From positions 1,860,001 to 1,924,000 of the forward strand of contig CM039010.1 in NCBI GenBank assembly GCA_017499595.2: 64,000 bases of DNA. Reading direction: 5' to 3'. Below, piece after piece: positions 4,921 through 62,965 of the stretch. The position numbers and the translations under genes are program-made. The notes under the pieces are model-generated. The model searched no databases, had not been told where the DNA came from, and saw nothing but the letters and a program-made list of their open reading frames with translations. The DNA is from Psilocybe cubensis (taxonomy: Eukaryota). Each line of letters starts with the position of its first letter. Position 1 is the first letter of the stretch.

Positions 4921-4926
4921 CCTAAT

Positions 4927-7900: not shown

Positions 7901-7931
7901 GATATGTCAATGGAAGAGTCTTGTGGAGATA
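4927..7931 (+). pseudogene. Gypsy D pol, part 1 (RT, RNase H, integrase N-terminus)
   Basis: LPMGWTNS, PYIDDV, VVETDAKYL, HGPDGLSR, AHNHNGHR and CYRCQER, with many stops. Confidence 0.92.
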
Positions 7932-10562: not shown

Positions 10563-10564
10563 TC

Positions 10565-10582
10565 TGGAGCCCACCGCAAGGG
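10565..10582 (+). promoter_or_regulatory. Gypsy A PBS, probably tRNA-Lys(CUU)
   Basis: TGGAGCCCACCGCAAGGG is complementary to a tRNA-like 3' end ...GGGCU-CCA, the ending of yeast tRNA-Lys(CUU). Confidence 0.65.
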
Positions 10583-10757
10583 AGGGTTAATTAGGATTTT
10601 GTATTAGGAACACAGCAATCTACCACTTTATCACTTCCATTCCATCCATTTCGACTCTTTTTCTTTACAGGTTATTTTGCTTCTCTGGTTTATTCTCTAG
10701 GCAACTTTAGGCAACAATTCTAGGCAACACTTTCTGACTCTGTAACTGGTTTACGCT

Positions 10758-16445: not shown

Positions 16446-16718
16446 CCATCAACTAAATAGGCAGTAGATTACAATGCTATGTAAACCAATACAATAAATT
16501 TTTAGTCTTACAAATCCACCCAATTTTTGGGGCCTGGTTTACATTGTCAAGCAATATCTTTATTAACTTTACAATATCCAAACAATTATTTGTTTTACCC
16601 TGCAAATTCAAGTAAGAATTTTTGTATGTTTATGACAAGTCTGGTTGACCGGCCATTACATAACCGGTTGACATAGGGGCCGTATGTCTTGGCCCGGCAC
16701 GTGTGTTAAATATAACAT

Positions 16719-20105: not shown

Positions 20106-21045
20106 CCCCCCGCCCCAGATAATGTGTCTGCACCAGTGCTTGCTAAAGCATTTGCAGCTGTTTTACTGGCGGAACCTGTTCCTAAACGAGTCTCCCGTTG
20201 CCAAATGACATTAAACACGATTAGGATCTCTTCAGAATTCCCCCTGACCTCCCTTCCAAGGATTCTTCCTCTTTTTCTTCCAAAAACGAACGCTCCCCTT
20301 TCCTACCAGCCCCGATCAAGATCAAAGTGCGTTTTCACTTGAGATTGGTTCATTACACTAATATTATGATTAGCTCCATGCAAAGAGGAAAGTGGCGCCA
20401 TGCCGCCCTGGTCCAAAGCGTAAAGACATGAGTGTATTTATTATATTCTCTATCTAGGGCTCATACATATTAGCTACAGGCACCACCTTCAGACCCCTTC
20501 GAGACCGGGATGAGGCCCTGCCTACTCCCAATTCTGACGCCACTGCCGCCAACGGTAAAGAACCACCAGCTAAAAAGGCCAAGAAAGGTGCCCAGCCCAA
20601 GGAAACGCGCCAACCTGTCAGGGCAACACTATAATCAGTGTGACAAGGCCACCAACAAAGATCAACAAGAGAGAGAGAGAGAGAGCAGAGGGAGAATAAG
20701 AGAGTGAGAGAGACTCAATGATTCTAAGAGATCACACCAATGATAGTGGATATCCTAAGAGATTGAAGCTGAAGCTACAGCTACCTACAAGTCCAGTATT
20801 TATACTCTACAGCTATTCTAGAATATTCCCTACATTACATCATAAAGGAAGGTTAAAGAATAAAAGTGACATCATATAGAAAAAGGATGAGTAAGACTAG
20901 GAATTATATAGAATTTACTAGAAAGAAGTGGAGCAAGAAGGCTGTGATGAAAGAAATAAACTATCTAATCAGATAATTGATAAGATAATGAAAGGATAAG
21001 ATAATTCTGTGAAGATAAAGAGGGGAAACTGGAGAAACCCTGACA

Positions 21046-27707: not shown

Positions 27708-29288
27708 CCGTGCATGATGAAATAAGCATCACATAGGTCCTAGACCTAGCGCGCGCTCAAGGCAAATTACAAACCTTAATTTATTGCACTCCACAATGAC
27801 CAACCAAAGATATTGAAGTAACCGTCACCAGACGGTATGACTAAGCCCTCGGCCTCAAAGCATCTATCCGAAACAGTATTGTACTCTCCAAGTGCTGCTA
27901 CGCAGTGTTCTGGCAAGCCGGCATGTAAAGCCGACAGCCTGATGCTACCTGTATGCCAAGAGACGGAGAAATGAAGGAAGAATTATTAAGAGCTCCTAGT
28001 CAGAATAAGTTGCCGGCTTGAGTATACAATTGCACATTGCTGATGTAATCACTGACTTAGACGAATAAGAGCGCTTATATGCTCGGATGAAGGAATGAAA
28101 ACCACCGCCTTGCGAGTCTGACTCGCTATGCGCAGTAACCTTGTTACCAATTCTTGTTTGTATAATGTAATATTAGTTAGTCAGGTCTCCATTTCTCAGT
28201 AGTACTCATAGTATAAATTAAACCATGTCATGTAGTGTAAGGACAAGCAATCTTATACCCAAGAATTGAGAGTACAGATTTAATCTGCATCTTTGCGTTC
28301 CCCAGTGTGATCAATTGTTTCGCGGACAAGCTCGTCATCTAAGAGAAGAAAGACCGAGTGTAGTTCACCTGGATTTGAATATATAAGTGCTTTGGTTCAT
28401 TAAGCGCTCTTGTATTGCAAGTCAAATATTCTATACTTTCTAAGTTAATTCTTAGGAGGTGACCAGGGCAAGAGGCTACTGGCGTAGGTCTGCCAGTTCT
28501 TCTTAGAGGGAAGAGCTCCTACACCGTTTCATTTAGCCAAGAGGGCACCTGTAACTTTGAGGGTTGCAGTTTTGTATTGTCTAGGACTTTGAGGGTCCAC
28601 CCACAAACTATAAGAGAATCTCATCTCTGAACAAGACCACTATACACTGAAGGGACTTGAAGGAAGCGTGTGCGCACACAAATCTAACAAGCGCTCTTAC
28701 TTGCATTTGGCGATTGAGTTGAATTAGATTCTTACCAAGTGCAACAACGTGCAGCATAGTGCACATCACCCCACACATTAGTTCTTTTGAACGTGAAGCT
28801 TTTCTGTAGAGTGTATTAATAGCTCTGCTCCCCTCCCAGTGACGAACATCATTGTTACAGCAATTGACTTGGGAATTGCACTGTCACCCCAAGCAAGACA
28901 TATTATCTAGAGCCCACCACAAGGGAGGGTTATACTTCAGAAAAGCTACGCTTTTAAAAGAAAGAAAAATTTATAAAAACAACAAGCTCTGTTGACAGAA
29001 CTCAAACATAAAAACATAAAATCACAATAGCTAAAAGCTCTTACAAGGGTTTTAAGCAAACTACAAAGAACTCCAGCTCGAGAGGAGATCTTTTAGTTTT
29101 AAAAGATCCATCCAAGCAAATTAGAAAACCCAGAGTCAAGACTGAGCCCGTTGAACAAGTTATCCCTAAGTGGACAGCTTCTATGTTAGAGCTCTTATTT
29201 GAATTACCTTTTGAGACCGTAGAAGATCTTCAAACTCTCTACTACAGTCCTAAAGTCAAACCTAGCAGCAATACTGTTCAGGACTCGT

Positions 29289-30453
29289 AAGGACCAACAT
29301 GGTAAGGTATTGCATAAGTACCTGGGCACCAAGGACGAACACAATACCTATGAGGCGGAAGCAGTGGGAGGCCAGCAGGCCTCCAAGCTGATACAAAACA
29401 AAGAGACAACACCCAGCAACAAGATCGACATCTTCAGTAATAATCAGTTGCTTCTGAGGAATCTAAGCTGGCCCAAAGCTAAGTCAGGTCAACAAATAAT
29501 GCTGGACATTGATAAAGCTTTTTGCACCTTGCAGGGTAGTATCACCGTACACTGGATTTTGGGCCACTCCGACGTGCTGGAGAACGAACGTGCTGACGAG
29601 GAGGCCAAACAAGCAGCCGAGGGAGATTCTTCGCCCATAGATGAGCTACCCACACCATTAAAAACATTGATAAAATGCAGTGCCTCGGCAGAGAAACAGG
29701 CATACCAGGAAGAGCTGCTGACAATCTGGAGAGATCGATGGAACTCGTCAAAAAGAAAGGCCCAATTCGCGTCAATAGACACAGAATTCCCCTTCAACAA
29801 ATACCGGAAAGCCATGAAGAACCTAAATCAGACTCAAGCCAGCGTGCTGATACAGGTAAGATCAGGACATATCCCGCTGAATAACCACCTCAGCAGGATC
29901 AATGGCAACCAAGACAAGCACTGCCCAAAGTGCTACAAGAGGAGAGGTGGACAGCAAGCAGTCAAGACAGTGAGGCACTTCATATTTGAGTGCAAGGGTT
30001 ACCAATGCCAGCAGAGGGAGCTATGGGAAGAACTGGGCAAACACTGCTCAAACCTGGAGGAACTCACAACCAAACACAACCACGTCAAAGCGCTATTACG
30101 ATTTATTGCAAAAACAAAACGGCTACGACCCTATAAAGAAAACTTACTAAAAAGAGGAGTAGAGGAAGAGGAAGGAAACTAAATGGGCGACAGACCTACA
30201 AAACCTCAAACTGAGTCAAAACACGAGCTTGTAGAGTTGGAAGATAGCCTACCAAAGGCCGGAGATGCCACCTCAAACAGCCTGGAAGAGGCTGGGCTAG
30301 GAGGGGGGACGTGAGGGCCCCCCTTAGTGCAGAGGGGATTGATGAAAGCCAAAACGCTAATGGAGCGTAGTAGGTAGTTAGTTAGTAGTAAGCCAAGGGA
30401 GGGGCCCACCCCTCAGAGGCTATAACACAAAAAACAAAAAAATAACAACAATA
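29289..30453 (+). mobile_element. 5'-truncated non-LTR retrotransposon (Tad1-like): RNase H, Zn finger, A-rich tail
   Basis: ORF 29310-30182 has YEAEAVG, VHWILGHSDVLENERADEEAK, QVRSGHIPLN and CPKC..TVRHFIFEC; A-rich tail at ~30424-30453. Boundaries are approximate. Confidence 0.88.
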
Positions 30454-30454
30454 T

Positions 30455-31846
30455 ATGCTATCTTTCCCAATCCCAGACAGCCACAATGTGCCCAAGTTTG
30501 TGCCTACTAAACTGGCAGAGCTCTTGAGGTTTATTGACCAGATGGAGGATTTATACAAAGAACATAAGATAACAGATGATAAAAAAAAGATAGCGCGCTT
30601 AGGAAAGTACGCATCTGCAGACACAGAAGAAGAATGGAAAGCATTTGATTTGTTCAGAGGCAATAGTTGGGATGCATATAAACAAGAAGTGATTAGCAGT
30701 TATTCTGCTGCCACTAATCTAGTGCATGGTTCCTACTTAAAAATCAAGAAAATCTGTGCACCATATGTTGGAAGGAATCGCATAACATCTGACGACATTA
30801 GCAAGCTCTTAAAGTTGAAGCGAGCTTTTGGAGCGGCTGCAGCAAAGATCATGAAAGATCCGCCACTCATTTCAAACCAAGAAGTGGTAGAGCTCTTCTT
30901 AGGGTGTTTGAGTACTTCATTCAGGACTCGAATCCGTGACAAGATGGATGACGCCTTGGACAGCAGGAGATTAGCCGCAGAAAACTTGGTTGGAGAAGAG
31001 CGCAAAGCTGCGTTAGCAAAGTTAGAAACGCGCTTAGATGATCGATATTGTTATTCAGATGTAATTGCGATGGCAATCAAAATAGTGGATAGAGTGTCAC
31101 AAGCTTCTGCTATGGCAATTGACCTGACCGATGACAGGGATGATGAGGATATTCCGAGAGAATATACCAAAGAAATTAAGAAGGAATATAATAAGGCAGA
31201 TGATGTAGTGCCTAAAATTGAAGAAGCTGTCGCGCAGATTAGCAATATGCTTAACCTTCTAATGAAGAAAGAAGCGGCTAGGGACAAGCAGAATGAGCTC
31301 TTTGATAGGAAGTTCAATTCGCTGCAGAGTTCCTTGGCTAATTGAAAGCAAACTTTAGCGCCTCCACCAAGAGCACCTAATTTTGGATATACCAATAATG
31401 GTAATTCCTCTTATAATAACCCCGGATTTGCGCCTAGATTGCAGCCTCAGTCTATCATTGGGTGTTTTTATTGTAGAGACTTAACCCATAGGATTAGTGA
31501 GTGCCCGCTCGCAAAGCAACATGAGAAAAATAAGTGGATTATTAGAGATGGAGGCAGAGTTTACAACATAGATGGTTCCCGAATTGCTCAAGATGGAAAC
31601 AAGAGCATAAAGGAAGTAGTCAAGCAAAGAAACGCACCTAGACTAGGTGTGATTCCAATTGCTAAGTTGCCACCTCAACCTGGGTTTTTCCAAGATCAGG
31701 AGAATGATGATTATGAAGTCGACAATGGGGATATACAGATAGCTCGCATAATGACAGCGCTCTTACAACAACATGGTCAAGACACAGTAGAGCGGGTAGT
31801 TACAAACCTGTATCTGACCAACAATGATAACCAAAATTTTTATTGA
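30455..31846 (+). pseudogene. Gypsy B gag
   Basis: FPIPDSHNVPKF start and knuckle CFYCRDLTHRISEC; one in-frame TGA at 31343-31345. Confidence 0.85.
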
Positions 31847-34800
31847 GTTTGAGGAAGGGTCGCGTTGCTCGGAATGTGTTACTCACAACCCGCTTAGCAA
31901 CTAAAAATCTGGAGAACAAAAATGCAAATAAAAAGGTTACATTCAAAGAAACAGAAAACAATGAAGGCAGTGTTGAAGAAGATGAACTGGATGATGAAGA
32001 AGAAAGCCCACCTATGAAAGTAGGGCCTCCAAAGCATCAGAAAGTCGAAGTCGTGATTCCTATCAGAAGAGCGCTTACCAAGAAACCGGAAGTTGCAGTG
32101 CCAGAGACAGTTACAACGCCCAAGAAAGAGAAAGTACCTGAAATTCTGTTTGTAGGGATACCTCCTATTGAGATAGTAGAGCGCCTGACGGATACAGACA
32201 AACCTACACTTGATACTCCAGTAGTCAAGCCAGGCCCTGCATATAGAACAAGAGAACCTATCAAAGCAGAGGTGGAAGCTGACAATATAATTGATGAAAT
32301 ACTGGATTTGAAAGTAGGTGTGCCTCTCAAGCAACTTGTAGGCAATACACCTGCAGTTAGGGAAAGACTCAGGAAGAGATTTACCAAAACAAGACAAGCA
32401 TTGTTGCAAGAAACTAAGAGCGCTTATGAGCCTTATGCCGAAGACATAGAATTAGATTGAGATATCACTGGATTACCAGTATCCTCGTTTATATTAGCGT
32501 CTGACGTGAAGGATGACACATGAATGGAACCTAAATGGAAAATAGGAGCGGATCCATTTCTGCAGTTTGCACAAACACACTGCACAAACGCACAATGGAG
32601 CGCTTCCTAGAGAAGCTTTATCAATGGCTGATACCTGTAATCTTAGGGTAATATACCCCAGAATTAATGGTGTTGGGCAGGAAGAAGCTATCCTGGATAG
32701 TGGTTCACAAATAGTTTTAATGGCAGAAAATGTGGCAGTTGAATTGAGTCTCACATGGAAACCCGCCATTACTATTAACATGCAGAGCGCTAATCAATCT
32801 GTAGACCGTGCATTGGGTCTTGCAGAAAATGTAGCTTTTAGCATGGGTGGTGTAACAATTTATCTCCAAGTTCACATTATCAAGAACCCTGCTTATCGAG
32901 TACTATTGGGACAACCTTTCAATAGGTTAACAGCATGTAATGTGAAAACTGAAACTGATAGAAGTACTGTGATTACAATCACAGATCCTAATACTGAAAG
33001 AAAGGCAACTGTACCTACCTATGAAAGAGGCAGAGGTCCAGAAGAGCTGCAGAAGAATAAATTTGCTGCTCAGTCTTTTTAGACAGCCTTGAGGAATTGA
33101 TGCCAGATCAAGGAGAGGCTGCCTTATTATTCGAGCTCGATGAATCAACTAAGACAATCTCCTTAGCTGGGTATTCATTAGTGCGCGAAGAAAAATTTAC
33201 TGAAACTGGAGTACGGAATACTTTCCTATCTCAACCTATATACAGTGAAGATATGGATTTTGGAGTGAAGAAGAAACTTGAGAGTTATTTACATCAAATG
33301 ACTCCATCACAGCCAGACAAACCTAGGAGCGCTTACCCAAGTGCCTCTGTTTTTGTAGGCAAGAAGTATAAATCAGTCGCTCTGAAAGTGAAGCTAGTAT
33401 ATGCAGAGTTACCTGATAACTTTTGCATAAAAAGAGAGATTAAGGGGGACCCATTGGCTGAAATGCCAAAGCTAAATCCCAACCTTCCTGACTTCACACC
33501 AACCAGTAGATACACGCAAGAGCGCCAAGCTGCATTTGATAAAGTGCATAAGGGAGATTTTTTATGGGCAGAAGAGCGGAAGGCTGTACACCATTTAATG
33601 ATGCAACAGAACAAAGCTTTTGTCTGGGATGATAGTAAAAGGAAACAGTTCAAAGAAGAATATTTCTCTCCAGTGAAAATTCCAACTGTAGAGCATGAAC
33701 CATGGGTTTATAAAAATATACCCATACCACCAGGATTGTTTGATGAAGTCTATAGAATTATCAGGTCAAAACAAGCGTCTGGGGTATATGAAGAGTCAAA
33801 CTCGTTGTTCCGCTCTAAGTGGTTCACTGTAGTCAAGAAAGATGGAAAAAGTCTATGCATTGTGCATAGTCTGGAACCATTGAATGCAGTTACTATCGCT
33901 CATTCAGATGTGCCTCCAGCTATGGAAGACTTAGCTTCACACTTTGCTGGAAGAGCGTGTGGGGGCATGTTTGATTTGTATGTTGGGTACAATAAAAGAA
34001 AATTAGACGAGTCGTCAAGAGACTTGACCACCTTTCAGACGCCTTTTGGTGCAATGAGACTGACCACACTACCCATGGGATGGATCAATTTGGTACCCAT
34101 CTTTCATGATGATGTCATGTACATCCTAAGAGATGAGATACCTGAGTTCACTCAACCGTATATTGATGATGTAGCGGTTAGGGGACCAGCATCTTGGTAC
34201 CAAAGTGAAGATGGCAGTTACACGCTCTTACCTGAAACCTCAGGAATAAGAAAATTTGTCTGGAAGCACTTACAAAATGTGAATTGTATAGTCCAACGTA
34301 TAAATATGCTGGTGGTATATTCTCAGGGACTAAGTCATTAGTCTGTGCAGATGAGATTGTAGTAGTAGGGCATGCTTGTACTATGGAAGGAAGGAAACCT
34401 ACGACAGAACATGTAAAAGCAATTATGGACTGGGTGGAATGCAAAAACGTCTTAGAAGTAAGAGCATTTCTTGGAGTAGCTAGTGTATTGCGAGCATACT
34501 GTATATCCTAGGCTATGCAAAGAGATCAAGAGTACTTCAGAAATTAACTCATCAAGGGAAAACCTTTGTATGGGGACCTGAACAAATTGATAGCATGAAA
34601 GCAGTAAAAGATGGAGTGAGAAATGCTCAGTGTTTGAAACCCATTGACTACTATGGTGAAGAAAATATAGTATTGGCAGTGGATACTTCTTACATGGCTA
34701 TTGGGTATTACATCTATTAAGAAAAGAAGGATAATCTAAAGGAACATAATTATGTGAAGTTTGGATCTATTGGATTGAAAGATCCTGAAGCTAGGTACTT

Positions 34801-36867
34801 ACAGCCAAAGCACGAGCTCTTAGGAGTCAAGTCTGCTTTGAAGAAAAACAGGCATCTATTAATAGGAGCGCGCAAGCTAGTTGTTGAGACTGATGCTAAA
34901 TATATTGCTGGAACATTGCAAAATCCCAACATGATGCCTAATGCAACTATAAATAGGTGGATAGAAGAAATAGGACTATTTCACTTCACATTAAGGCACG
35001 TAGCAGGAAAGACATTTGGACCAGATGGATTGTCCAGGAGGTCTAGACAACCTAATGATCCGCCGCTTGATGATGACGAGGACAGAGAGTTAGAACCAAG
35101 TGGACCTCTGCTGTTAGAAATTGTGAATTCCGAGGATCCGCTACCTCTACCAATCAAAGAATTTGTAAAGATATTGATACTTGTGGGGGATATTTGCAAA
35201 CCACTAAACAAGAGCTCGAAATTGATGCCAAATATGTGGGTTTAGCAAGATTAGAAGAAGATTTTGAGCAAGAGCTCTTAAGTACAGAATTAGCAAGAGC
35301 GGAAGAAAGAGCTTGTTTAAACAAGCATATAGAGGTAAATGGGAATTGTATGGGTCGAGAACGCACTGTATATGTGCAGCAACTAGTCGCTACCCTAGCG
35401 TTACCTGAAGAAACTCAAGTATCAGAGACGGAAAAAGAAGCGCTCTTAGAGCAGCGTAGCGAGAAAGCAAAAACATATGATGAACAGTTAGATGATGTAG
35501 TCTTATGGCATAAAGATCATAGTCATTGCCCAAGTGGACTGACCAAGAAACGGCAGGCCGCCTTCGTACAATTTGCAAGGCAATTTTGTACAATGAAAGA
35601 CTATATTACAGAAATAATGGTGCCACACATCGGTTAGTGGTGAAACCTGATAGAAGGATGTACATGTTGAAGGCAGCACACAATCATGTAGGTCATAGGG
35701 GATATTATGCTACTAGTCAGCTGTTAATGCAGAGATTTTGGTGGCCAGAGATGGAGCGCAATGTGAATTGGTTTGTTAAGAGCTGTCATCTTTGCCAAGA
35801 GCGGCAGAAGGTTATGGTCAAAATCAAACCAACTATCACACATACTCCATCTATATTCCAAACTATGCATGCTGATACGCTCAACATGTCCCCCGCATCA
35901 AATATGTAAATGTTCACATATTGTGCACAGAAAAGACGTGCTTACCACATGGATAGAAGGGCAACCGCTACAGCGCAAAACTGGAAGATTAATTGGTCAA
36001 TGGTTATGGGAAGACATTATTTGTAGATGGGCTTGTATGTCAGAGCTTGTAACAGATAATGGTGGACCTTTCTTAGCCGCGGCTAAATGGTTAGAGTCAA
36101 AATATGGAATTGTAGAAATTAGGAACTCACCCTATAATTCACAAGCAAATGGAGTAATAGAAAGACCTCATTAGAATGTACAACAAATGTTGTATAAAAT
36201 GTTAGGAGAAAAGAATGTGAAGCAATGGTATCACTTTTTCCACTACATCATGTGGGCAGATAGGGTCACAATCAGGAAGCGCCTAGGGTGCTCACCCTAT
36301 TTTATGGTGACTGGAAGTCATCCCATACTACCATTAGATGTGAAAGAAGCAACTTGGTTAGTTGCACCACCAACAGGTATTATGACAGAAGAAGAGCTCT
36401 TAGCTTCCAGAGCAAGAGCGCTAGCCAAACACAAGTTACACATTAATGAGATGAGAGCGCGTATTAATATACAAAAGTTAGAACAATTGCAGAAGTATGA
36501 AAAAGACTATGCAGCTGTAATACGCGACTATGATTTCAAAACTGGAGATTTGGTATTGATAAGAAATACAACAGTGGAAAAGTTGCTTAATAAGAAAATG
36601 AAATCAAGATATTTAGGACCTATAATTGTAATTCGACGAACTAGAGGAGGATTCTATATTGTGGCAGAAATGAATGGTGCAGTTTTGCAGAACAAAGTTG
36701 CAGCATTTAGGGTATTACCCTACTTCCCTAGAGAGAAGATAGCTATGCCAGCCAATATTCAGGATTTAATTGATATCTCAGAAGAAGCACTATTAGAAAT
36801 TGAGCAAAACGAACCTACAAGCAAGGACTTAGCCTTTAAAGGGGTAAAATTAGACCCAGAAGACTAA
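31843..36867 (+). pseudogene. Gypsy B pol (protease, RT, RNase H, integrase)
   Basis: AILDSGSQ, PYIDDV, VVETDAKY, AHNHVGHRG, CHLCQER, LVTDNGGPF and RYLGP. Confidence 0.94.
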
Positions 36868-54000: not shown

Positions 54001-55336
54001 CTTAAACCTTCCTACTTTAAAATCCAGGCTCTCAAGCAGGGTCATGCTACCATTACTGGTGCAGAAAATGATCTTCTTAAGAAGATTAGAGAAGCTAAGG
54101 AGATGGATGAAAAGGTGGTCAAGGCAGTTCAGGAGCTCAAGAAATCTTCTACCAAGAAGATTGAAGGACAGGAATGGTCAGAAGAACAAGGTCTTATTCT
54201 CTACAGGGGGAAGGTGTATGTTCCCAAGGACAAAGATCTTAGAAGAAAAATTGTGGAACTGCACCATGATGCCTTCATTGCTGAACATCCAGGGAAATGG
54301 AAGACAATTGAGCTAGTCTCTAGGAATTATTGGTGGCCAGGAATGTCACATTTTATTGCAGCCTATACCAGAGGTTGTGATAGATGCAACAGAACCAAAA
54401 CATTCCCAGCCAAACCTCTTGGCCTTTTAATTCCTACTGAGATTCTCTCTGATGTCTGGCAATGCATTTCTGTGGACTTTATTATGGGGTTACCAGAATG
54501 TCAAGGGTATAATGCCATTATGGTGGTTGTGGATAGACTTAGTAAAATGATCCACATTATCCCTACTACAGATGAAGTCACTTCTGAAGGGACAGCCAGA
54601 CTATACAGAGATTATGTCTGGAAACACCATGGCTTACCCATTAAAATTCTGTGTGATAGAGGTCCACAGTTTGTCTCAAGGTTTATGAAAGAACTCAACT
54701 CAATACTTGGTATCCAGACAGCCTCATCTACAGCCTACCATCCCCAAACTGATGGTTAGACTGAAAGAGTTAACCAAGAAATTGAGCAGTATCTTAGACT
54801 CTTTATAAACCATAGACAAGATGATTGGGTTGAATGGTTAGCTCTACCTGAATTCTCTTATAACAATAGAGTTCAGGCTTCAACCAGGCAGACACCATTC
54901 ATGCTCAATAATGGCAGACATCCCAGAATGGGCACTGAACCCCTTAGAGATAGTAAAATGGACACTGTGGATACCTTTGTGAAAAATATGGAAGAAGCCA
55001 GAAAAGAAGCAGAGTCTGCACTTAGAAAAGCTGCTAATAATATGGCTAAATTCTATAATAGACACAGAGGTACTCCAACTCAGTACAAAGTTGGAGATTT
55101 GGTATGGTTGGATGGCAAGGACCTCAAAACTGATAGGCCCTCCAAGAAATTGGATGATAAAAGATTATGGGCCTTACAAAATTACCAAAGTTATTAGCCC
55201 TAATGCCTATAAGCTTAAACTGCCATCTACCATGAAAATCCATCCAGTGTTCAATGTGGTTAAACTTCTACCTTATCACCCAGATATTGTAGGAAGAAAG
55301 CCTCCTTCTAGACCACCTCCTGTCACTCAAGGAGAA
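51002..55336 (+). pseudogene. C2 pol, interrupted by the 8-bp-TSD element; its chromodomain is inverted to 62134-62428
   Basis: Collinear with C1 pol; stops at 53761 and 54757. Confidence 0.93.
52744..53517. mobile_element. 774-bp non-autonomous TIR element with an 8-bp TSD
   Basis: Perfect 34-bp TIR AGGACCCGGGAAGCTCCCCTAAGGCCTTGTCCGG; TSD GCCTTTGA; C1 shows the empty site. Confidence 0.96.
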
Positions 55337-56585
55337 TATCTTCTGTCAGGGCAACACTATAATCAGTGTGACAAGGCCACCAACAAAGATCAAGCAAGAA
55401 AGAGAGAGAGCAGAGGAAGAGTAAGAGAGCAGGGAGAAAATAAGAGAGTGAGAGAAACTCAATGATTCTAAGAGATCATACCAATGATAGTGGATATCCT
55501 AAGAGATTGAAGCTAAAGCTACAGCTACCTACAAGTCCAGTATTTATACTCTACAGCTATTCTAGAATATTCCCTACATTACATCATAAAGGAAGGTTAA
55601 AGAATAAAAGTGACATCATATAGAAAAAGGATGAGTAAGACTAGGAATCATATAGAATTTACTAGAAAGAAGTGGAGCAAGAAGGCTGTGATGAAAGAAA
55701 TAAACTATCTAATCAGATAATTGATAAGATAATGAAAGGATAAGATACATCAGCAAAAGTGACCAAGTCCCCAAATGCCTTGTCAAGGCATTTGGAGGCG
55801 ACCAAATGCCCCAAGGCCCAAATGGCCTTTTAGATTGACTAATTAGAGACTCGGAATTTTGAAATGCTTTAAATCATTCAATAAACCCAATGTTTTAGCT
55901 AGATCTAAATTTAATTACGAGTCTTTACGTAAGTAAAGATGAGTTCTTTTATCCCCACAACCCAGCGAGCAAAAATGTCCTCGCCAATTGTCCCCATCAA
56001 AATATTATTGATGCGATCAATGTTGTTACCGCTATCGGTATTTTCCTTAAGCGGTCACCGGACCCCCTAAGCAACCCCTTTCCAATTCATTCTACGACTT
56101 CTTTTTACCATTGGTTACTTTAAAGGTTGTTTTTGATTTGTTTTGATCGCAATGTGAATGTGCGTTTCTATAAAATTAATTATACCCAACAACAATAGTC
56201 CTACTCAATTCACTTTTTTGCGTAGTTGTTTAATTTTTAAAACCATGTGGAACCGTCTAGACAACGTGCTTATATATTGTACTAATACTTAGAGATGGAA
56301 CAAATGCACTCTTTGAACTATGGGTCTGAAAGGTTGGAAATAGAACTGTGCAGGCACACACGTTCCTTGATATTGGTAGCTTCATCAATCAGAGTTCAAA
56401 TAGAAATAATTACGCGTTCTTGGGTTCTGGGCATTCTGTACTATTTGAATTTGATTTTCTGATTCATGATCGTTTCTCACGCATACCAATTTGTTCTTCC
56501 CCTATGTCGGGCGTCTATCGGCTTACAGTTAATATATTTATTGACGTAGTATAGACAATGCACTTTTCTCCGCACTGTTTTACCC

Positions 56586-59422
56586 ATGGCTTCCGCGTTA
56601 TCCCCCCGTTTCCAACAGTATGTTCACTGTTTTATCTCATTTGGTTATTACTTATTTTTTAGAGTCTTTCCGCCTCCCATGGACAATGTGTACATGGATC
56701 AGATGGATCTGAAAACCCTCTACCGTTTCTCTTGGACTTGCAAGGAGCTAAATGACCGCGTTTCGGGCTATATGCGCCGCGCCTTCCATCCCAAAAATTT
56801 ATTTGCTCCTATCTTCAAACCCAATGAACATTTGCTGTTTCGTCTTCTCCAGTTCAAGACTGGCCTGGTTATTTCAGGTTCCACCGTTTTGCATTTTACT
56901 TGTTTTAGTGGTCCAACGCAAAGCGTGGCATGACAAGACTTTACATCTCACAATTGTATAAAATATTTTTTAATCTAGATTTATATAACATAGTTAATAT
57001 ATATTAATATGTTCTGAATGCACAGCCAGATACTGGGCAAGGTTATGATTAATTACTATGACTTAGGTCTACTACAAGCTTAGTTGTGTCAGACACAAAA
57101 AATAGCTGCACAGGTTATAAGGCCTAATTGTAAGGAAGAACTTGTCTATTATAATTTTCATACCTGCTAAATATTGAAGAATTCCAAATCTGCTGGGAGA
57201 ATCCCGTATGGAAAACTGATGGAAGAATGCTCATGTGTATGGCTGCCCAAGTGGGGACATATTTCCCATAAATATAATTTTCTTATTTTTGAAAAGTGCA
57301 TCAAGAGTGAAACAATATTGTGTGCAAAAACATTTGTTTGGTGCGCATATTTCTTTTTGGTATAGTTTGATGTTGCTGTGAACACAATTGGCTGTGTGGA
57401 AACATATTTCAAGCATAATTTGCAAGTGTTAGTGCATTATTTCTTCCCCAAAATACATTCAATGCATGGAAATCATTATTCAAAATGACCATCTCTTGAC
57501 CAAAGTGGCCAGTGCTCAATGCAAATTGAGTGTAGTGACCGTGGGAATATCCTGCGTACAGTGTGCGCAGGATATTCCCACGACCTGCTTATTAATTCAC
57601 GGCCAGTACAAACACCACAGCAAGTAAAATATAATAAGATCATCTAAACTAGGACTGAAAATAATTATTATTGCCAAAAATACTTGTATTTTACCTAAAG
57701 TATATGCAATGCATCTCAGTAATATATCAGGAATTACCAGAGAAGTTCAAGTTGCTCAATGCAAAGTGCGGCAACCATGAGAATAACTTGCATACACTAT
57801 ATGCAAGTTATTCCCACAGTCTGCTTATTAATTCATGGCCAGTATGAACAGCACAACAAGTTTAATATGACAAGTTATTTGAAGTGGCATTAAAGATAAT
57901 AGCTAGATACATAATGTTTATTATTCTTTATTCTATGCCACCACAGTCTGCTAGTCATTCATGCTAAATTTTTTTTGATAACAATAAAGCATTCTATTTA
58001 CCTCTACTTGCCGTTAGAGGTGTATAAAGCATGCAAAACAGTTGGTATGTAATTGATTGTGACTAATTAATGGCCTTAAATCAGTTGAATGAGGTTATTA
58101 TTATAAAATTTTTGGTTATGAGCGATGATTATCTGCGTCAAAATGTTTAACTTGCAATTAAAAAGTCATAATGTAATGGTATCTAATTTTGTTTTCTACC
58201 ATATGGCAGCTAACCTATCTACCTAGCTAATATCTAGTATTTTAATTTCCATATCCCCTTGGTAGGAACAAAAACTAACAGAAATTCTATGATAGTAACC
58301 AATTATTAAGTCAAGCATACCGGTTAAGTAAAAAACCGGTATTAATCACGCAATTTTGATGGCATCAATGATTTACTGATGGGGACAATTGGCAAGGACA
58401 TATTTTTGTACAGTGGGTTGTGGGGATAAAAGAACTCGCTTTACTTACATAAAGTTTCGTAATCAATCGTGCTAATATATGGATTCCGGGTGACATGGAC
58501 ATGTATGTCGAGCACAGATAAACATCCTCTTCATCGACATTACAATACCACTGGAGTGGTCGTTAACCTATGGTGCCAAGGTTCTTTTGTCCAACTGATT
58601 ACGACTTATCAATCGGTGGTAGAGTGCATTTTGGGGTATCATAGCAGTATGTCCCCAATATCATGTGTCAAAACAATGTTAACTTCAATTTTGTTCTACT
58701 GCAGCCGGCGTCATGAATTTTGTTACCTTTGAGAAGGTGTACAGCTTGTATCCAAATGCTACCTTTGGACATCAAGTCTCTCTGTTGCAACCTTCTGCCG
58801 ATCTCAAGCGCGCGCAAAAATTTCTTGCAAAATATCATTCCCGTGGCTTGAAATTTGTTCTTTCCATTCCATTGCAAACTTTGAAAATGGACCGCCATAT
58901 CCAAAGCAGGATACAGTCTATCAGGGACAACGTAAATGTTGGGTATAGTTCATCTCGTGGTCATGTTCTCGTTGTGCTGGATTACGATCCTTATCTAGAG
59001 TTGTTCTCTCCTGGGATTAGACGGGTTGGCGACAGGCATTGTTGGGTTTATTCTTTGCCTCTTTTACCCAAAGCAAATCAGACTTTCTTTGTTGAAGCCA
59101 ATTCGTGGGCATTGTTGCTCAATGAATTTGATTGTTTGCATTTTGGTGTCCATTGCATCAGCAGTATCGCATTAGATTTTCACTACACAGCGGCAGATGT
59201 TTACCAATTACACAAGCGTGTCAAAAAAGCTATCAAATCCTGGGAAAGGGGTATAAGGTGTGTGCTCTTTAGTTTTAGTATTTGTCAACTTAATTCCTAT
59301 AATGTAGGCAAAAAGATGACCGTGTACATGCAACTGTTTTGTATTTGCTATCCAGAAAGGCAGATATTTTTTGGTTGCATCGCCCTCAACCACAAAGCCT
59401 CTTGTGGAATGGATATTTGTAA
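56586..59422 (+). pseudogene. F-box-like / Pol-beta nucleotidyltransferase-like protein, split by H2
   Basis: N-terminal MDLKTLYRFSWTCK; excising H2 gives ISGSTVLHF-IPGDMDMYVE; later VQLI..ILGYHS, VMNF..YSLYP and RRVGD..W. Confidence 0.65.
56899..58483 (-). mobile_element. Helitron-like derivative H2, nested in inverted orientation in H1
   Basis: Minus strand A|TCCATATATTAG ... GCCACGCTTTGCGTTGGACCACTAAAACAAG|T; inserted between A and T with no TSD. Confidence 0.82.
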
Positions 59423-59519
59423 TTTCTTCCATCCTTAGTCAAATTTTTGTTCGAAATAAACTTGTGTTCTCGTCCTCATTCTTTTTGTCTTAATTTGTAA
59501 GTTTGACTTGCGGATGAGC

Positions 59520-59699
59520 GTGGGAATATCTTGCGTACAGTGTACGCAGAATATTCCCACGGTCAACCTCTCCCGATATTCAGCCGAGTGTGGGAATATT
59601 CTGCGTACAGTGTACGCAGAATTCTCCCACGGACTTCCTTGCCGATATTCAGCCGAGTGTGGGAATATTCTGCGTACACTGTACGCAGGATTCTCCCAT
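59520..59699. repeat. Three 41-bp palindromes in ~70-bp tandem units
   Basis: Consensus GTGGGAATATTCTGCGTACA-G-TGTACGCAGAATATTCCCAC at 59520, 59590 and 59659; related copies at 57541 and 57777. Confidence 0.93.
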
Positions 59700-59845
59700 G
59701 GGGTGCCAACTAACACCTTCAGATAATTTCCTGTCATGAAAATGACTTGACAAATTATTCCTTGTTATTTACAATGTTCACGCAAATGGATTAATTGTTC
59801 GTTCAGCACATTTATGATATCCTTGTCTTTCTATGTACATATGTA

Positions 59846-60820
59846 TTAATCTTGGGACATAGTATTGCTATTGTGGACTGTGTCCTCATTTAAGCGCATA
59901 CGTGCCATCCTCTGTTGCGTGTCTTCAATGTCAATCTGACCTTTGTACAGCTGCCTCTTTGTCCTACACAAAACAGCAACCTATCTTTTCGCTGGAGTAT
60001 AGCGCGACCGCATTCTGAGAATATCAGCTTTCTGTTGGAAGTTATGAATAGCTATGAGACTGTTCAATGTAACATTGCTTACCTCTCTTGCCTCCTGGTC
60101 CAAGACAAGTATTCCGCAAAGAGCAACAACAAATTTGTACTTGTTTCCTTGGGCAGGAAATGCGACAAAGGCAACACTGATCTCGACAATGTCTCCAATT
60201 CGTATGGAGGCAGGATTATAAGAATAATATCTGTTGCAACATGATATTAGTTTGGTTGTGATGTGTTGTTGGTATTTTCTAAACATACCTGGCTGTTCCG
60301 TCAGGAAGTATCTCCCGACAAAGAAACTGTACCTTGTTATCGATTGCGTGGATGAAACTGTCCCCTACCATGGACGCCAACACGTTATCAGGGTCGACCA
60401 GGGGATGAAAATCTATGTTGTCAGATTTGTCTTGATATGCGGATACCTTCGTGAAATATTGGCTATGTGCATGGAAAACATTGAAACCCGTGTCTTTGTG
60501 AAGAACTGGGTCATAGCCGCTGACGCTGTCCGCGGGAAAATTGTTTGCAAAACGGAGGAAAACTTCTTCTAGCTTTTCCATCACCTTATTGAACACAATG
60601 TCTCCGAGTCCCGTGATAGCAATGGCGGTACGTAAATATGGTTGTTGCTTGACCGTTCTGTCGCGGCTGTAACAGTCCTCATTTGTAATTAATTCACCTC
60701 AATGGAGTGGACGTACAAAGCAGGCTTTGCCATTGGTGGTAGCATCTTGTCGCTAACTATGCCTTGGAGTCTGAATATCACTTCGTCCATTGCACCGATA
60801 TCCACGTCAAAGTTGGACAT
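59846..60820 (-). CDS. Spliced hypothetical protein, possibly an OB-fold ssDNA-binding protein
   Basis: MSNFDVD..EVIFRLQGIV..LPP, VDPDNVL and PASIRIGDIVEISVAF..LCGILVLD; short introns. The fold is inferred from a beta-rich pattern. Confidence 0.5.
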
Positions 60821-62965
60821 ATTTATATTATATTATATATATATTATATTATTACAAAGCGTGACGCTGAATCGTAAAGACTCGTCATGCCACGCTCCGC
60901 GGTGGCCCACTAAAACAAGTCAAATCATTTGGGTAAAATTTGGGAGACCCAAAAACATTTGGATAACATTTAAATTGCATTTGAGAGCCCTGAGAACATT
61001 TAGGGTTCACCCAATATTGACACAATGATATATTTTGCATATTTCTACTCCTGGCAGCCACTTCAGGTGTTCACACAATAGGATGTAGTAATTCAATTAA
61101 AATATTATTGAAAGATATTCAAACAAAAGAGGGTACACAGAAATGACTGAAAGAAAGCGGATTCAAGTTCATTAGTGGTACAATCTGGGCGCTGGGAAAA
61201 CATGACGGAGTCACGTGATTGAATTGATGCGCTACAAGATCTACACTGGTTGATGAGTCACGGTCAAGTAAATGTAAATATATGCGCATATACGTACCAA
61301 TAAGTTGACCAGAATGGGTGTCTGGTTATCAGATACACTCTAGAGAAAGAAGTAATCAAGGCAGATGAAGAAAAAGCCATAAAAAGGTATAAAATAGTCA
61401 GTCAGGATGGTATGATGAAAAAGAGAGCATGTCTCTCACCTTTTCAGCTCTATACCAGTCTTGAAGGGCCAAAAAAGAGGCATGGAAGTATTAAGTGAAA
61501 CTAGAGAGCGCCGTCATCAGAGTGGTGGAAATGAAAGGGTAGAAAGAAAGCGACTTGGGCGTGTCTCAGATTATTATGCTCAAAACGGATATTTAGTCTC
61601 CAATTTAATTTGTCAGAGGAGACGGCCTCTCTAATTTGTATTTCTTGAAGTCAAATTTCTCACGTACATGTAATTCTTATGACAATGGTGTCGTATTGGA
61701 AACAACCTGCCCACGTCATAGGTATTACATGTGGTCAGTTAAATTTTCCATACCTAAATCATTTTGAACATATTTGAAGCCCTTTAATCATCAGTGTCAA
61801 CAAAAAGTTAAACTCAATGTTTTATTCTTTGTTTTTATTTTTAATCAATTGTTCCCTGCAAGTTTTATGGCAAACAAATTATTAAGAAATAAATGTAAGT
61901 ACATGGAATATTTTGTACTGAACTTTGAGGTGTATAAATGTTTGTGGAGCATTCAAATGCTCTCCAAATGTTTTGTGCACCTCCAAATTTTAGTGAAATG
62001 TTTTTGTGTGATTTAACCTGTCACGCAAAACATTGACCTGCTTAAAAAGGCACAAAAGGCATTTGGGGATCTTGTCACTTTTGCCGATGTAATTCTGTGA
62101 AGATAAAGAGGGGAAACTGGAGAAATCCTGACATCACGCCCTCTCTAAGGCACATTTTCCACAATGTGCATATGGATGGGTTAGTTTAGAGGGTTTAAGA
62201 AGAGGAGAAGGTTCAGTAAAGTTAATAATAGGAATGAAAGAAAGTCTATCAAAGGTCACAGCAGAAATCCTTCTAGGTGCTGAAGGGTGTTTGGCATGGA
62301 AGTCCTTGATAGCCTTAGAAACATTTTTCAAGTGCTCTGCAGGCTCCCAAGTGCATTCTTCATTAGGATAGTTCTTCCACTTGACCAAATATTGAAGTTT
62401 GTTTCTAAAAAGTCTGCTGTCCTTGATACATAGTGTTGCCCTGACAGGTAGATGCCGTGAATCTTGAAAACGGCATTGCAGCAGTCCTGGCGCGGACCGA
62501 TGGTGTCAGCGCGCTAGTTTGGCTCCTGAATAAAGATGTGACAAAGAGATATAATTAGCTATGAGTAAAAACAATGAAGTAGAAACAAGAAGAAAACGTA
62601 CCATAACTTAAACAGCGCGGTTGAGAATACCAAAGATAATAGGCGCCTGGTCTTTGTCTTGCACAGCGGATGTATTGACGATAGTTAAAGGGATGAAAAT
62701 CATTGCCCAAACACTGTCGGTGATGGGAATAAGAGGGTCGGCAGTATTGACAGTTGACATGATGCAAAAGAAGTTAGAAGGCAAGAAGCTATCAGAGGGC
62801 GATGCTGTTAGTCCAGCCAAAAATAACAGTTATTTATATGGACTGGCAATGTGCAGACTTAGCAGGAATCAGTGCAAATATATTTGTGCTTTGATAGCCA
62901 AATCCACTAAGTGACAAGGATAGGAGGCTGACTAAGAACAGTCAGGTGCTTTAGTTTGGGGGAAA

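Follow-up and report, generated by a model that had tools for sequence, protein, structure and literature searches.

A multicopy Helitron-like element without a Rep-helicase gene in Psilocybe cubensis carries a gp2.5-fold gene and a nucleotidyltransferase-like gene

The 64-kb window analyzed here (the whole stretch from position 1,860,001 to 1,924,000 of Psilocybe cubensis contig CM039010.1) contains a mobile element, H1, that lies nested within other transposons. We consider it probable that H1 is a multicopy element of the HLE2/Helitron2 type that lacks a Rep-helicase (RepHel), is moved in trans and has long retained an accessory module of two genes. The product of one gene is predicted to have the fold of T7 gp2.5-type single-strand-binding proteins (SSBs), while the other is nucleotidyltransferase (NTase)-like. 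Hence, fungal rolling-circle-type transposons may keep DNA-handling helpers of their own.

The elements are arranged as follows:
55338..55747: Ty3/Gypsy LTR, first part, split by element T; 55343-55747 matches 20615-21003 at 94% (blastn)
55748..55914: left arm of the outer TIR element T (CATCAGCAAAAGTGAC...), with a TA target duplication
55915..60919, + strand: H1, Helitron-like element of 5005 bp that lacks RepHel; empty-site joint 55914→60920
56898..58461, − strand: H2, a 1564-bp gene-less copy of H1's family inside gene 1; empty-site joint 56897→58462
60920..62089: right arm of element T (inverted repeat, reads)
62090..62431: Gypsy LTR, second part; matches 21002-21343 at 95.6%

The limits of H1 and H2 are given by empty sites. 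The joint 55914→60920, which skips 5005 nt, is carried by 176 and 181 reads in two raw-read runs and by two contigs each of contig sets X1 and X8; the joint 56897→58462, which skips 1564 nt, is carried by 39 and 40 reads in two runs. Each joint has just one ambiguous nucleotide, and therefore neither element has a target site duplication (TSD). The initial annotation had the 3′ end of H1 exactly right (...CCACTAAAACAAG followed by T), but it began the element at a "TC" at 55904, 11 nt to the left of the actual start at 55915 (TTACGAG...), and its limits for H2 (56899-58483) placed the end 21 nt too far right. Element T has a 36-nt inverted repeat (55746-55781 and 62091-62056, 89%) with TA on both sides, and 2750 reads (X14) join 55745 to 62090. 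The order of nesting is Gypsy LTR > TA-TIR element > H1 > H2; therefore, the genes came to this site by transposition. Read depth is ~330-420 per mate column throughout H1, H2 included, which is ~19-fold the expected single-copy depth (~36-40x in total, calculated from 1632 M read letters and ~41 Mb of contigs), and the family is estimated at roughly 20 copies. The flanks reached by the 559 and 539 loose ends behind 60920 are diverse, with a consensus agreement of 0.35.

H1 and H2 are two copies of one family with asymmetric ends, nested in opposite orientation. Their 5′ ends (55911-56055 in H1 and 58466-58319 in H2) are 79% identical over 149 nt and their 3′ ends (56893-56944 in H2 and 60925-60874 in H1) 87% identical over 52 nt (blastn); the H2 5′ end matches that of H1 with 3 mismatches in 24, and the 3′ end is the same. 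About 95% of the H1 copies carry the H2 break in gene 1, which indicates that gene 1 is dispensable in cis for amplification. The reads point to one, perhaps two, H1 copies without H2 (P0002 is the intact paralogue), while gene model P0001 begins within H2. On the reading we favor, the H2 insertion in gene 1 predates most of the amplification of the H1 family.

The ends of H1 contain the following features:
55915..55959, + strand: conserved 5′ terminus, which includes a small hairpin at 55922-55939
55917..55929, + strand: left terminal inverted repeat, 13 nt, asymmetric, ACGAGTCTTTACG; exact inverted match to 60873-60885
60873..60885, − strand: right terminal inverted repeat, at a distance of 34-46 nt from the 3′ end
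60889..60906, + strand: 3′ stem-loop, GCCACGC-TCC-GCGGTGGC, then the 13-nt tail CCACTAAAACAAG

The termini of the family read TTACGAGTCTTTAC... at the 5′ end and ...CCACTAAAACAAG at the 3′ end. Even with up to two mismatches allowed, the 13-nt repeat has only these two matches in the 64 kb, and the 3′ end followed by T is exact in H1 and H2 and is found nowhere else in the window. The 5′ terminus recurs in H2 (38/43 identical columns) and in two metagenome loci, L001 (37/44) and L006 (35/44); similarity drops to 8/45 and 9/37 beyond the terminus and to 7/25 and 5/23 upstream. All four aligned termini retain the 5′ hairpin, and three of the four left flanks end in T (the flanks include TAAT, TGAT, and AGAT). 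The 3′ stem-loop is short and folds no better than shuffles, being weak on its own: the terminal 60-nt stretch of H1, second helix included, gives −8.6 kcal/mol (z −1.1), and the stem-loop at the same place in H2 is weaker (z +0.65). Neither a 5′ TC nor a 3′ CTRR is present in H1, which ends in CAAG, and its ends are canonical for neither Helitron group. Hence, of the Helitron-type ends described initially, CAAG before T and the GC hairpin (60889-60906) hold but not the TC start; the broader claim of a Helitron-like structure is borne out by empty sites and terminal repeats, i.e., a mobile, TSD-less element with asymmetric ends.

Judged by sequence, the ends fit the Helitron2/HLE2 layout, in which a stem-loop succeeds an inverted repeat close to the 3′ end (PMC11417382, PMC5148889); in H1 a 13-nt repeat, a stem-loop and 13 nt follow one another. 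As described in the relevant parts of these papers, HLE2 elements such as FoHeli of Fusarium oxysporum share with H1 asymmetric ends, a 5′ hairpin, the absence of a TSD, gene-less derivatives and a right inverted-repeat copy that lies tens of nucleotides inside the 3′ end and precedes the stem-loop. The "TNAT" flank of FoHeli1/2 also resembles these three left flanks. In contrast, the terminal sequences of H1 are unrelated to those quoted for FoHeli, H1 carries a conserved two-gene module, H2 has a T/A or A/T target (its empty site is a single T, then A) instead of the T-T target of HLE2, and, unlike FoHeli-type non-autonomous elements as presented there, H1 has no known RepHel partner.

Two convergent spliced genes are present in H1, as first annotated, and their ends flank a palindrome array:
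56586..56897, + strand: gene 1 exons 1-2, to ...ISGSTVLHF; intron 56617-56662; P0002 residues 1-89 (tblastn)
58462..58646, + strand: gene 1 continued, INRANIWIPGDMDMYVEHR, then a frameshift and in-frame TAA; P0002 residues 90-108 and 149-191 (tblastn)
58705..59422, + strand: final exons of gene 1, 58705-59257 and 59308-59422 with the stop codon; P0002 (tblastn)
59516..59698: tandem palindrome array separating the stop codons of the two genes; palindromes of 40-43 nt, period 69, 2.6 copies
59846..60820, − strand: gene 2, P0004 residues 1-271 in three segments (tblastn); appears intact, with private changes
57540..57582: palindrome within H2, 91% identical to 59519-59565; DNA fold −22.6 kcal/mol, z −9.7

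Gene 1 is dead in H1, as had been surmised. A loss of ~119 nt at 58519/58520, private to this copy, shifts the frame and gives rise to the stop; the missing YALPVLS... and ...ILKMEKIVLQ are present in other copies (loose ends, X8), and the last exons are 96% identical to P0001. Removal of H2 had been thought to join ISGSTVLHF to IPGDMDMYV with a short GS-DxD spacing. The joint is instead to INRANIWIPGDMDMYV, matching the intact paralogue P0002, so the spacing is normal (15 residues). In the family alignment, SG[SL] is present in 11/11 sequences and DxD is intact in 9/11, while no third carboxylate was identified. The structural neighbors of gene 1 in the ESM Atlas include a Gad2 (PF26128) cluster (TM 0.46 over 223 residues) and PolyA_pol clusters (0.37-0.38). 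It shares the SG[SL]...DxD motif with Gad2 and PolyA_pol/CCA-type Pol-beta nucleotidyltransferases but has no Pfam match to Gad2 or PolyA_pol. The proposed NTase identity is thus favored by motif and neighbors but not by the model of gene 1 itself (pLDDT 31.7), and a Pol-beta nucleotidyltransferase fold is probable as a lead only. The F-box also proposed finds no Pfam match up to E=5; an F-box-like N-terminus is seen only in the Psilocybe paralogues.

For gene 2, the predicted model (pLDDT 87.1) matches T7 gp2.5 (1je5) in Foldseek with E 8.8e-6, and VIA aligns 169/182 residues with Z 11.9. Viral SSBs or annealases make up all six top VIA rows (gp2.5 11.9, Enc34 10.8, DUF2815 9.9, CP312R 7.2, BALF2 6.2, and ICP8 5.8), and 77 BFVD matches at E<=1e-3 come from phages and giant viruses. 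Pfam, PHROG and PDB profiles detect no sequence-level similarity to gp2.5, and the relation is one of fold alone. An ssDNA-binding gene of RPA-like type had been suggested; modeling recovers the SSB OB fold, but of the gp2.5 type and not that of RPA, and the product may therefore bind ssDNA. The fold of the whole domain is shared with gp2.5-type SSBs (PDB 1je5, 5odk, 4klk, 8hw5) and their Megavirales relatives, while most members of the gene 2 family (605 cluster representatives at E<=1e-3) differ in having ~60 extra N-terminal residues, and the family has a basic KRK stretch near the C-terminus. Moreover, gp2.5-like SSBs are placed in phages and Megavirales in the portion of PMC4889955 concerned, whereas gene 2 represents a cellular/transposon family of Basidiomycota.

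Are the two genes a module or a random capture? Gene-1-like and gene-2-like sequences are convergent in 5/5 testable metagenome fungal loci (seven loci in total, two of which end too early for testing). The dN/dS values for the families in these loci are 0.27 and 0.17 (gene 1) and 0.21 and 0.21 (gene 2), and among the five family members of at least 500 aa, three, which are Agaricales proteins, have both domains fused. Both L001 and L006 contain the 45-nt 5′ terminus of H1, and it has an unchanged orientation toward the pair. A 3′ terminus was not detected in the metagenome loci, and conservation across the element is accordingly shown for the 5′ end only. Convergence, purifying selection, the common 5′ terminus and fusions argue that the pair is a retained module, as the initial annotation had proposed; sequence comparison thus indicates linkage and purifying selection in other loci. 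The vertical inheritance and the role in transposition or anti-silencing put forward with it would be further, hypothetical properties of the module. The three metagenome lineages may derive from one or a few related fungi.

Alternatively, the pair could be an ordinary Agaricales host cluster (e.g., a conflict/immune-type NTase with an OB-fold partner), captured once as a block and with no role in the element. Both families are large and confined to Basidiomycota among the ESM Atlas rows, in Coprinopsis, Agrocybe, Pholiota, and Candolleomyces their relatives bear no annotation beyond hypothetical protein, and the carried copies decay in the Psilocybe genome. There is also precedent: HELPO1 of Pleurotus ostreatus, another Agaricales Helitron, carries whole captured genes (capA-capF) with no function assigned in the sections concerned, and it shares with H1 a subterminal hairpin and the lack of a TSD, with 3′ end variants occurring (CTTG in HELPO2); it differs in that its autonomous copies have RepHel, T[C/G]...CTRR ends and AT insertion (PMC4289320). 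However, the H1 5′ terminus adjoins the pair in L001 and L006, where the proteins are only ~30-35% identical to the Psilocybe copies, a pattern that a one-off recent capture would not yield. We therefore regard the host-cluster explanation as rather unlikely.

The absence of a Rep-helicase from H1, noted initially, stands: no Rep/helicase domain was detected in the five exon translations of H1, and no RepHel or recombinase domain in 18 window ORFs (chosen from 44 of at least 130 aa) or in 123 ORFs (29 + 94) of the seven metagenome loci. Since H1 encodes no Rep-helicase, we infer a RepHel made elsewhere that would move it in trans by a rolling-circle route. The 5′ terminus would be nicked, one strand displaced as far as the 3′ signal, which comprises right repeat, stem-loop and 13-nt tail, and the displaced strand inserted without target duplication. 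The gp2.5-fold OB protein might coat or anneal the single-stranded intermediate, the role proposed for RPA-like proteins in plant and animal Helitrons, with the SGS...DxD protein as the second member of the module. A close parallel is known from rice, where the DHH_Mothra mother element, classed as a semi-autonomous Helitron, has an RPA-like gene and no RepHel. According to the part of PMC4683698 that describes it, it resembles H1 in keeping a single-strand-binding gene, in its high-copy gene-less relatives with tandem-repeat blocks and in an SSB acquired independently of other Helitron lineages. H1 differs in the phage/giant-virus gp2.5 fold of its SSB, the linked NTase-like gene and the fungal host, and the sister family of Mothra has RepHel.

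Conversely, H1 might be autonomous and of an undescribed kind. Its mobility machinery would consist of the SSB/annealase and the NTase-like protein, joined in fuller copies by a third ORF, which three loci conserve at 2.2-2.5 kb upstream of gene 2; its ends would then be convergent on those of Helitrons or reflect another single-strand mechanism. This scenario accommodates the constancy of the pair beside one 5′ terminus across diverged lineages under purifying selection and the failure to find RepHel, and the H2-free copies could serve the others in trans. However, neither family alignment shows a nuclease or HUH motif, contigs of at most 10 kb leave room for RepHel further out or elsewhere, and SSB-only "semi-autonomous" Helitrons are already on record, as seen with Mothra. 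To our knowledge, NTase plus SSB corresponds to no transposition chemistry. An autonomous H1 is accordingly quite improbable. Movement of H1 and H2 by another agent (a Crypton-type tyrosine recombinase or short-homology recombination), with a superficial Helitron likeness, is very doubtful: non-canonical ends (TT/TA...CAAG), a weak hairpin and the missing RepHel would suit it, but the scanned ORFs have no recombinase domain, and several traits together are HLE2-like as far as PMC5148889 and PMC11417382 describe them: an inverted repeat (12-16 nt) then stem-loop restricted to the vicinity of the 3′ end, a hairpin at the 5′ end, T/A insertion with no duplication, carriage of genes, and derivatives that lack genes but contain internal tandem repeats.

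Under the favored trans-mobilization model, the module is old, while the family is decaying in the Psilocybe genome, with H2 in gene 1 and, in the H1 copy itself, the further deletion and many C>T/G>A changes. The genes of the pair drift there, since gene 2 of the H1 copy has four nonsynonymous versus two to three synonymous private changes (among the listed read differences) and deletions or a frameshift occur in 3/6 annotated paralogues. The palindrome array (TRF score 282; folds z −3.5 to −8.6) is absent between the genes in 5/5 related loci, and H2 has a second, weaker palindrome at ~57778-57815.

Sequence that runs across the empty site defines the limits of the element. Mapping on 55300-62500 with two raw-read genomic runs of the same species label (X14 and X15) and two contig sets (X1 and X8) revealed a joint from 55914 to 60920 that skips 5005 nt (95 + 81 reads in X14, 85 + 96 in X15, and two contigs each in X1 and X8) and a second joint from 56897 to 58462 that skips 1564 nt (23 + 16 reads in X14, 18 + 22 in X15). 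Both empty-site joints carry one ambiguous base, and a target duplication is absent from each. The read joints thus give the positions of a Helitron-like element, H1, and of a gene-less relative, H2, which is nested in the first of its two genes (either element may lie one base further to the right).

Features of H1 and H2 in the window
55915-60919, + strand: H1, Helitron-like element carrying gene 1 (+) and gene 2 (-), which are convergent
55922-55939: 5′ hairpin, 7 bp
56898-58461, - strand: H2, relative of H1 inside gene 1
ATG at 60820, stop at 59846-59848, - strand: gene 2, located by tblastn with its annotated paralogue P0004
60889-60906: 3′ stem-loop, 18 nt, G+C, after the right repeat and followed by a 13-nt tail

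The initial annotation had the 3′ end of H1 exactly right according to these joints, its "TC" start (55904) falls 11 nt outside the element, and the end it gave for H2 (58483) is 21 nt too far. Repeat search and self-blastn identified two inverted matches, 55911-56055 with 58466-58319 (79% over 149 nt) and 56893-56944 with 60925-60874 (87% over 52 nt). That these are the arms of TIR transposons is ruled out by their order, as the two pairs are interleaved (L1, L2, R1, R2). Interleaved arms are explained by two oppositely oriented copies of one element with asymmetric ends, not by nested TIRs, and the read joints confirm this arrangement; two unlike-ended copies, H1 on the plus strand with H2 on the minus strand inside, had been proposed at the outset. 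The 3′ end, CCACTAAAACAAG, is the same in H1 and H2 and has no other occurrence in the 64 kb, and the 24-nt 5′ ends of the two differ at three positions. Both H1 and H2 therefore combine precise insertion, lacking a TSD, with the asymmetric ends of Helitron-like elements.

The paralogues of gene 1 bear on the insertion of H2. P0002, an intact paralogue free of H2, reads ...ISGSTVLHFINRANTWIPGDMDMYVEHRYALPV... across the H2 site, consistent with the read joint. The GS-DxD spacing had been described as short; the H2-less sequence in P0002 gives a normal spacing of 15 residues. A stop had been noted as well. It is present, after EHR, its cause being a private deletion of ~119 nt, and X8 contig ends at 58520 hold the missing YALPVLS... 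/ ...ILKMEKIVLQ. Reading of the sequence indicates that the first residues of a second paralogue, P0001 (JR316_0008746), MQNSCFV, are encoded by an ATG within H2 that is spliced to the last H2 bases; the P0001 locus thus holds the same H2 insertion.

H1 is itself part of a deeper nest. A Gypsy LTR, of which an intact copy is found at 20615-21343, is split into 55343-55747 and 62090-62431, and 2750 X14 reads join 55745 to 62090. The 6.3-kb insert in this LTR (T) has a 36-nt inverted repeat at both ends and TA on either side. The nesting order is LTR > T > H1 > H2 and, with H1 within T within the LTR, both genes reached this site only via transposition of H1. T itself has ~36-nt TIRs (CATC[A/G]GCAAAAGTGAC...), a TA target duplication and arms at 55748-55914 and 60920-62089; CCAAATG motifs recur in it, a further inverted repeat lies inside (60926-60975 / 61951-62000), and copies of T without H1 are present in the reads.

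The 13 nt after the initial TT of H1, ACGAGTCTTTACG (55917-55929), are exactly inverted at 60873-60885, and these two sites are the only matches in the window when up to two mismatches are allowed. H1 thus has short repeats of which the right one is subterminal and followed by a stem-loop. The HLE2/Helitron2 layout is described as inverted repeats of 12-16 nt at the termini, of which the right one precedes a stem-loop, with a 5′ hairpin in some cases (PMC11417382, PMC5148889). The ends of H1 follow this layout. The stability of the 3′ stem-loop is no better than that of shuffled sequence (z -1.1 in H1 and +0.65 at the same place in H2), and it counts by position, not energy. Canonical Helitron1 elements start with 5′-TC, end with CTRR-3′, insert at A/T and carry a 16-20-nt hairpin ~10-12 nt before the 3′ end. 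The TC...CTRR ends were not found in H1, which reads TTACGAG...ACAAG or TACGAG...CAAGT; the Helitron1 hairpin has a counterpart in the 18-nt stem-loop 13 nt before the H1 end, thermodynamically unremarkable as it is. If the element starts with TT, the target is A|T for both H1 and H2 (the related metagenome locus L001 then has G|T), and in the other register it is T|A and T|C. Insertion between two Ts, the rule for HLE2, does not hold for H2, since its empty site, read along the element strand, has a single T (...GAT|AAAA). This target, one T and then A, fits the TNAT|A reported for FoHeli1/2 (PMC5148889).

Gene 2 had been considered a possible ssDNA-binding gene, which is borne out at the level of the fold, the type being gp2.5 and probably not RPA. 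The AlphaFold model from a 78-sequence alignment has a pLDDT of 87.1 and a pTM of 0.76. Foldseek against the PDB places T7 gp2.5 first (E 8.8e-6), then DUF2815, ASFV CP312R and Enc34 SSB. In an independent search with VIA (48,161 chains), gp2.5 reaches Z 11.9 (169/182 residues), Enc34 SSB 10.8 and DUF2815 9.9, followed in lower rows by CP312R (7.2), EBV BALF2 (6.2) and HSV ICP8 (5.8), with generic OB folds at Z ~4-5. According to both VIA and Foldseek, the OB fold with its gp2.5 elaborations extends across the whole domain. The sole RPA-domain chain listed (3e0e) has Z 4.1 versus 11.9 for gp2.5, and Pfam gave no match to an RPA domain in gene 2. Searched for sequence-family membership, gene 2 had no match among Pfam, PHROG and PDB profiles, PHROG giving two weak unnamed rows. 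In BFVD, 77 proteins of phages and giant viruses match at E<=1e-3, and gp2.5-like SSBs are described from phages and Megavirales (PMC4889955). On the basis of the modeled fold, the gene-2 protein would be expected to bind ssDNA. The acidic C-terminal tail of T7 gp2.5 serves partner contacts; the C-terminal 50 residues of the gene-2 model have a pLDDT of 55-70. Six paralogues of gene 2 occur in Psilocybe cubensis, spread over four or more contigs; half of them are full-length (96% identity), and the other three have deletions or a frameshift. Ten relatives examined by name, from Agrocybe, Pholiota, Coprinopsis and Candolleomyces, are annotated as "hypothetical proteins".

Pol-beta nucleotidyltransferases are marked by the motif hG[GS] ... 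[DE]x[DE]. In an alignment of 11 gene-1 family sequences, SG[SL] is present in 11/11 and DxD is intact in 9/11, FHST..MN and KY..G being further invariant motifs. The window copy reads ISGS...DMD, in agreement with the NTase motif noted in the initial annotation. A search of the ESM Atlas by structure with the paralogue P0003 gave a Gad2 cluster at TM 0.46 over 223 aligned residues, with PolyA_pol clusters at 0.37-0.38; Gad2 has a predicted nucleotidyltransferase domain (10.1101/2023.05.01.538930). The Atlas rows also point to hundreds of gene-1 relatives in Basidiomycota. The protein P0015 has a weak Pfam match to Aminoglyc_resit (E 0.0084), below the cut-off. The AF2 model of P0002 from a 3-sequence alignment (pLDDT 31.7) is unusable, the family profile against PDB sequences gave only a chance CBS-domain row (E 0.13), and 0/12 members matched PHROGs. 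We regard the NTase fold of gene 1 as likely but unproven. The F-box also assigned to this gene is unconfirmed: P0001-P0003 have no Pfam match, F-box included, up to E=5, and the name is found only in automatic labels of clusters. In the ESM Atlas searched by features, P0003 falls near Basidiomycota clusters auto-named "F-box domain-containing" (0.96-0.97), PF00646 being present in 11% of the members of two neighboring clusters, and the N-terminal stretch of gene 1 is not common to its metagenome relatives. The exon translations of the region are 96% identical to proteins labeled P. cubensis, which makes the window DNA of this fungus or of one closely related to it.

The two genes occur together beyond Psilocybe. 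Among the 150 gene-2 relatives listed, five are at least 500 aa long, and in 3/5 the SSB-like part is followed by a gene-1-like domain; these fused proteins, from Coprinopsis cinerea and Candolleomyces efflorescens, have the motifs ISGS...DLDFYV and FHST.VMN. Metagenome contigs scanned with an alignment of five sequences gave seven fungal loci in about three lineages (L001/2/3, L004/7 and L005/6), and these contigs may derive from a small number of organisms. Five loci reach at least 1 kb past the SSB-like gene, and each of them has a gene-1-like ORF convergent behind it, as in H1; the two others end earlier. The 5′ terminus of H1 matches L001 (7787-7748) and L006 (9956-9917), and the order of terminus, gene 1 and gene 2 is that of H1. 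The similarity begins exactly at (T)TACGAG and covers ~45 nt, with 37/44 identical columns in L001 and 35/44 in L006. Outside the terminus the identity drops, to 8/45 and 9/37 over the 45 columns that follow it and to 7/25 and 5/23 upstream. Given proteins that are ~30-35% identical and a terminus at ~85%, it can be argued that the terminus and the genes have long travelled together. The initial annotation had suggested looking for the pair between the same termini and beside RepHel genes. The convergent pair and, in L001 and L006, the 5′ terminus were recovered; searches of L001-L007 for the right repeat, the pre-hairpin motif and the 3′ terminus itself gave no convincing site, and no RepHel was detected in the 123 ORFs scanned from these loci. 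It had also suggested dN/dS; comparisons between related metagenome copies (Nei-Gojobori) gave 0.27 and 0.17 in gene 1, and 0.21 twice in gene 2. The pair is under purifying selection in related elements.

Some of these loci hold additional frames. A third conserved ORF (L006:3167-3883, L004:773-1177 and L002:2002-2412, all on the minus strand) is divergent from the SSB-like gene and lies 2.2-2.5 kb upstream of it (identity 30%/29%, E 1e-16/1e-14). Neither Pfam nor PDB sequences gave a match for it, and the same holds for an 827-aa ORF of L006 and a 347-aa ORF of L001. The window lacks this third ORF, H1 ending there 100 nt past the start codon of gene 2. Beside the pair, L001 has a second, diverged member of the gene-1 family on the opposite strand (4654-5694, +), which shares 23% identity with the copy in L007 (E 1e-11). 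In L006, two diverged members of this family stand in tandem (7532-8485 and 8700-9575, -) and are 38% identical to each other.

Collectively, H1 is a real, precisely bounded, multicopy element lacking a TSD, with Helitron2-like ends and a retained pair of genes, one for a gp2.5-fold SSB and one NTase-like. How it moves is a separate matter. No RepHel, that is, no Rep (HUH-Y2)-helicase, was detected in H1, whose lack of one had been pointed out earlier, in the 18 long window ORFs scanned, or in 123 ORFs (29 + 94) of the seven loci. The nearest parallel is the Mothra mother element of rice, which like H1 has an SSB-type gene and no RepHel; its gene is RPA-like, and a sister family presumably serves the element (PMC4683698). 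The same paper counts three or more independent acquisitions of an SSB by Helitrons, and the repeated uptake of RPA-type SSBs is read there as a sign that coating of the displaced strand matters for rolling-circle transposition. The best inference, and one to which we give reasonable though far from full credence as a joint statement, is that a Rep-helicase mobilizes H1 and that the gene pair handles the single strand. A bolder model, in which H1 is independent of RepHel, would be in keeping with the failure to detect such a gene in H1 and in the ORFs scanned from the seven loci, and the Mothra precedent speaks for service by another element; we consider this model improbable. A similarly long shot is the broader proposal of a mobile lineage in Agaricales with a viral-type core (gp2.5-fold SSB/annealase, Gad2-like NTase and, in fuller copies, the third ORF) and Helitron2-like termini but no RepHel of its own. 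Such a lineage would be either a new, self-sufficient class of single-strand transposons or an obligate Helitron "satellite" with its own ssDNA-handling and possibly also counter-defence proteins.

The fold of the SSB sets H1 apart: it is that of phage and giant-virus gp2.5, whereas the SSBs that Helitrons are known to have taken up several times are of the RPA type. If borne out, this would represent a further, independent SSB acquisition by such transposons. It would also mean that a large gp2.5-fold family (605 cluster representatives at E<=1e-3, of which 203 also pass 1e-10, by exhaustive phmmer) sits in cellular eukaryotic genomes, and it would provide a function hypothesis for two large families of mushroom "hypothetical proteins". 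Among the papers examined, none dealt with either gene family or with Psilocybe Helitrons.

Read depth is 330-420 per mate column throughout H1, H2 included, and 28-52 in inner T, the single-copy expectation being ~36-40x in all (1632 M letters read; contig sets of 40-42 M letters). A depth ~19-fold that expected of a single copy gives an estimate of roughly 20 copies of H1. Behind 60920, 559 and 539 reads continue with a consensus agreement of 0.35, which implies many different flanks; multiple copies with differing flanks are what is expected of Helitron-like elements. H2 is covered as deeply as the H1 sequence around it and few reads show the joint without H2, so the insertion of H2 preceded most of the amplification. 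Since nearly every copy of H1 has a broken gene 1, this gene was not needed in cis for the burst. This offers a natural test case, with one copy, perhaps two, in which gene 1 is intact versus ~20 in which it is broken. Within H2, 484 reads break before 57238 and 652 behind 57272 (consensus agreement 0.94), with a slight rise in depth, and this 35-nt piece (57238-57272) seems to be common to H2 and another repeat family.

The window copy of H1 is old, mutated and decayed, and lies three levels deep in other repeats. It has T/A where nearly all reads have C/G in 38 of the 40 best-supported differences listed (371 further). Inside H1, 18 of 32 checked differences of the C>T/G>A type are in CpG context, a share that suggests deamination of methylated repeats. 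Among the read differences listed, the changes private to this copy are 8 nonsynonymous versus 2 synonymous in gene 1 and 4 versus 2-3 in gene 2.

The palindrome array between the two genes has a period of 69 and 2.6 copies, its folds have z -3.5 to -8.6, and two units recur inside H2. Palindromes between the convergent genes were found in 0/5 related loci, which places the array outside the conserved module; it belongs to the Psilocybe family. It could act as a cis site or a terminator, or be mere filler. Where H1 has the array, L001 has a 105-nt tandem duplication between the genes (2012-2221; 95-97% identical).

Repeats abound in the neighborhood: Ty3/Gypsy domains (gag, RT, RNase H, integrase) occur both at 21.8-26.1 kb and at 49.8-55.5 kb, and part of a copia gag is present at 1.4-2.1 kb. 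A chain of long frames (261-560 aa) with a GC skew of ~-0.3 extends over 8886-16460 (+), and the four frames tested had no Pfam match. Another run of long frames, at 29223-36864 (+), shows a strong positive AT skew and, in one of the four frames tested, a weak RNase_H match below the cut-off; it is probably a degraded retroelement.
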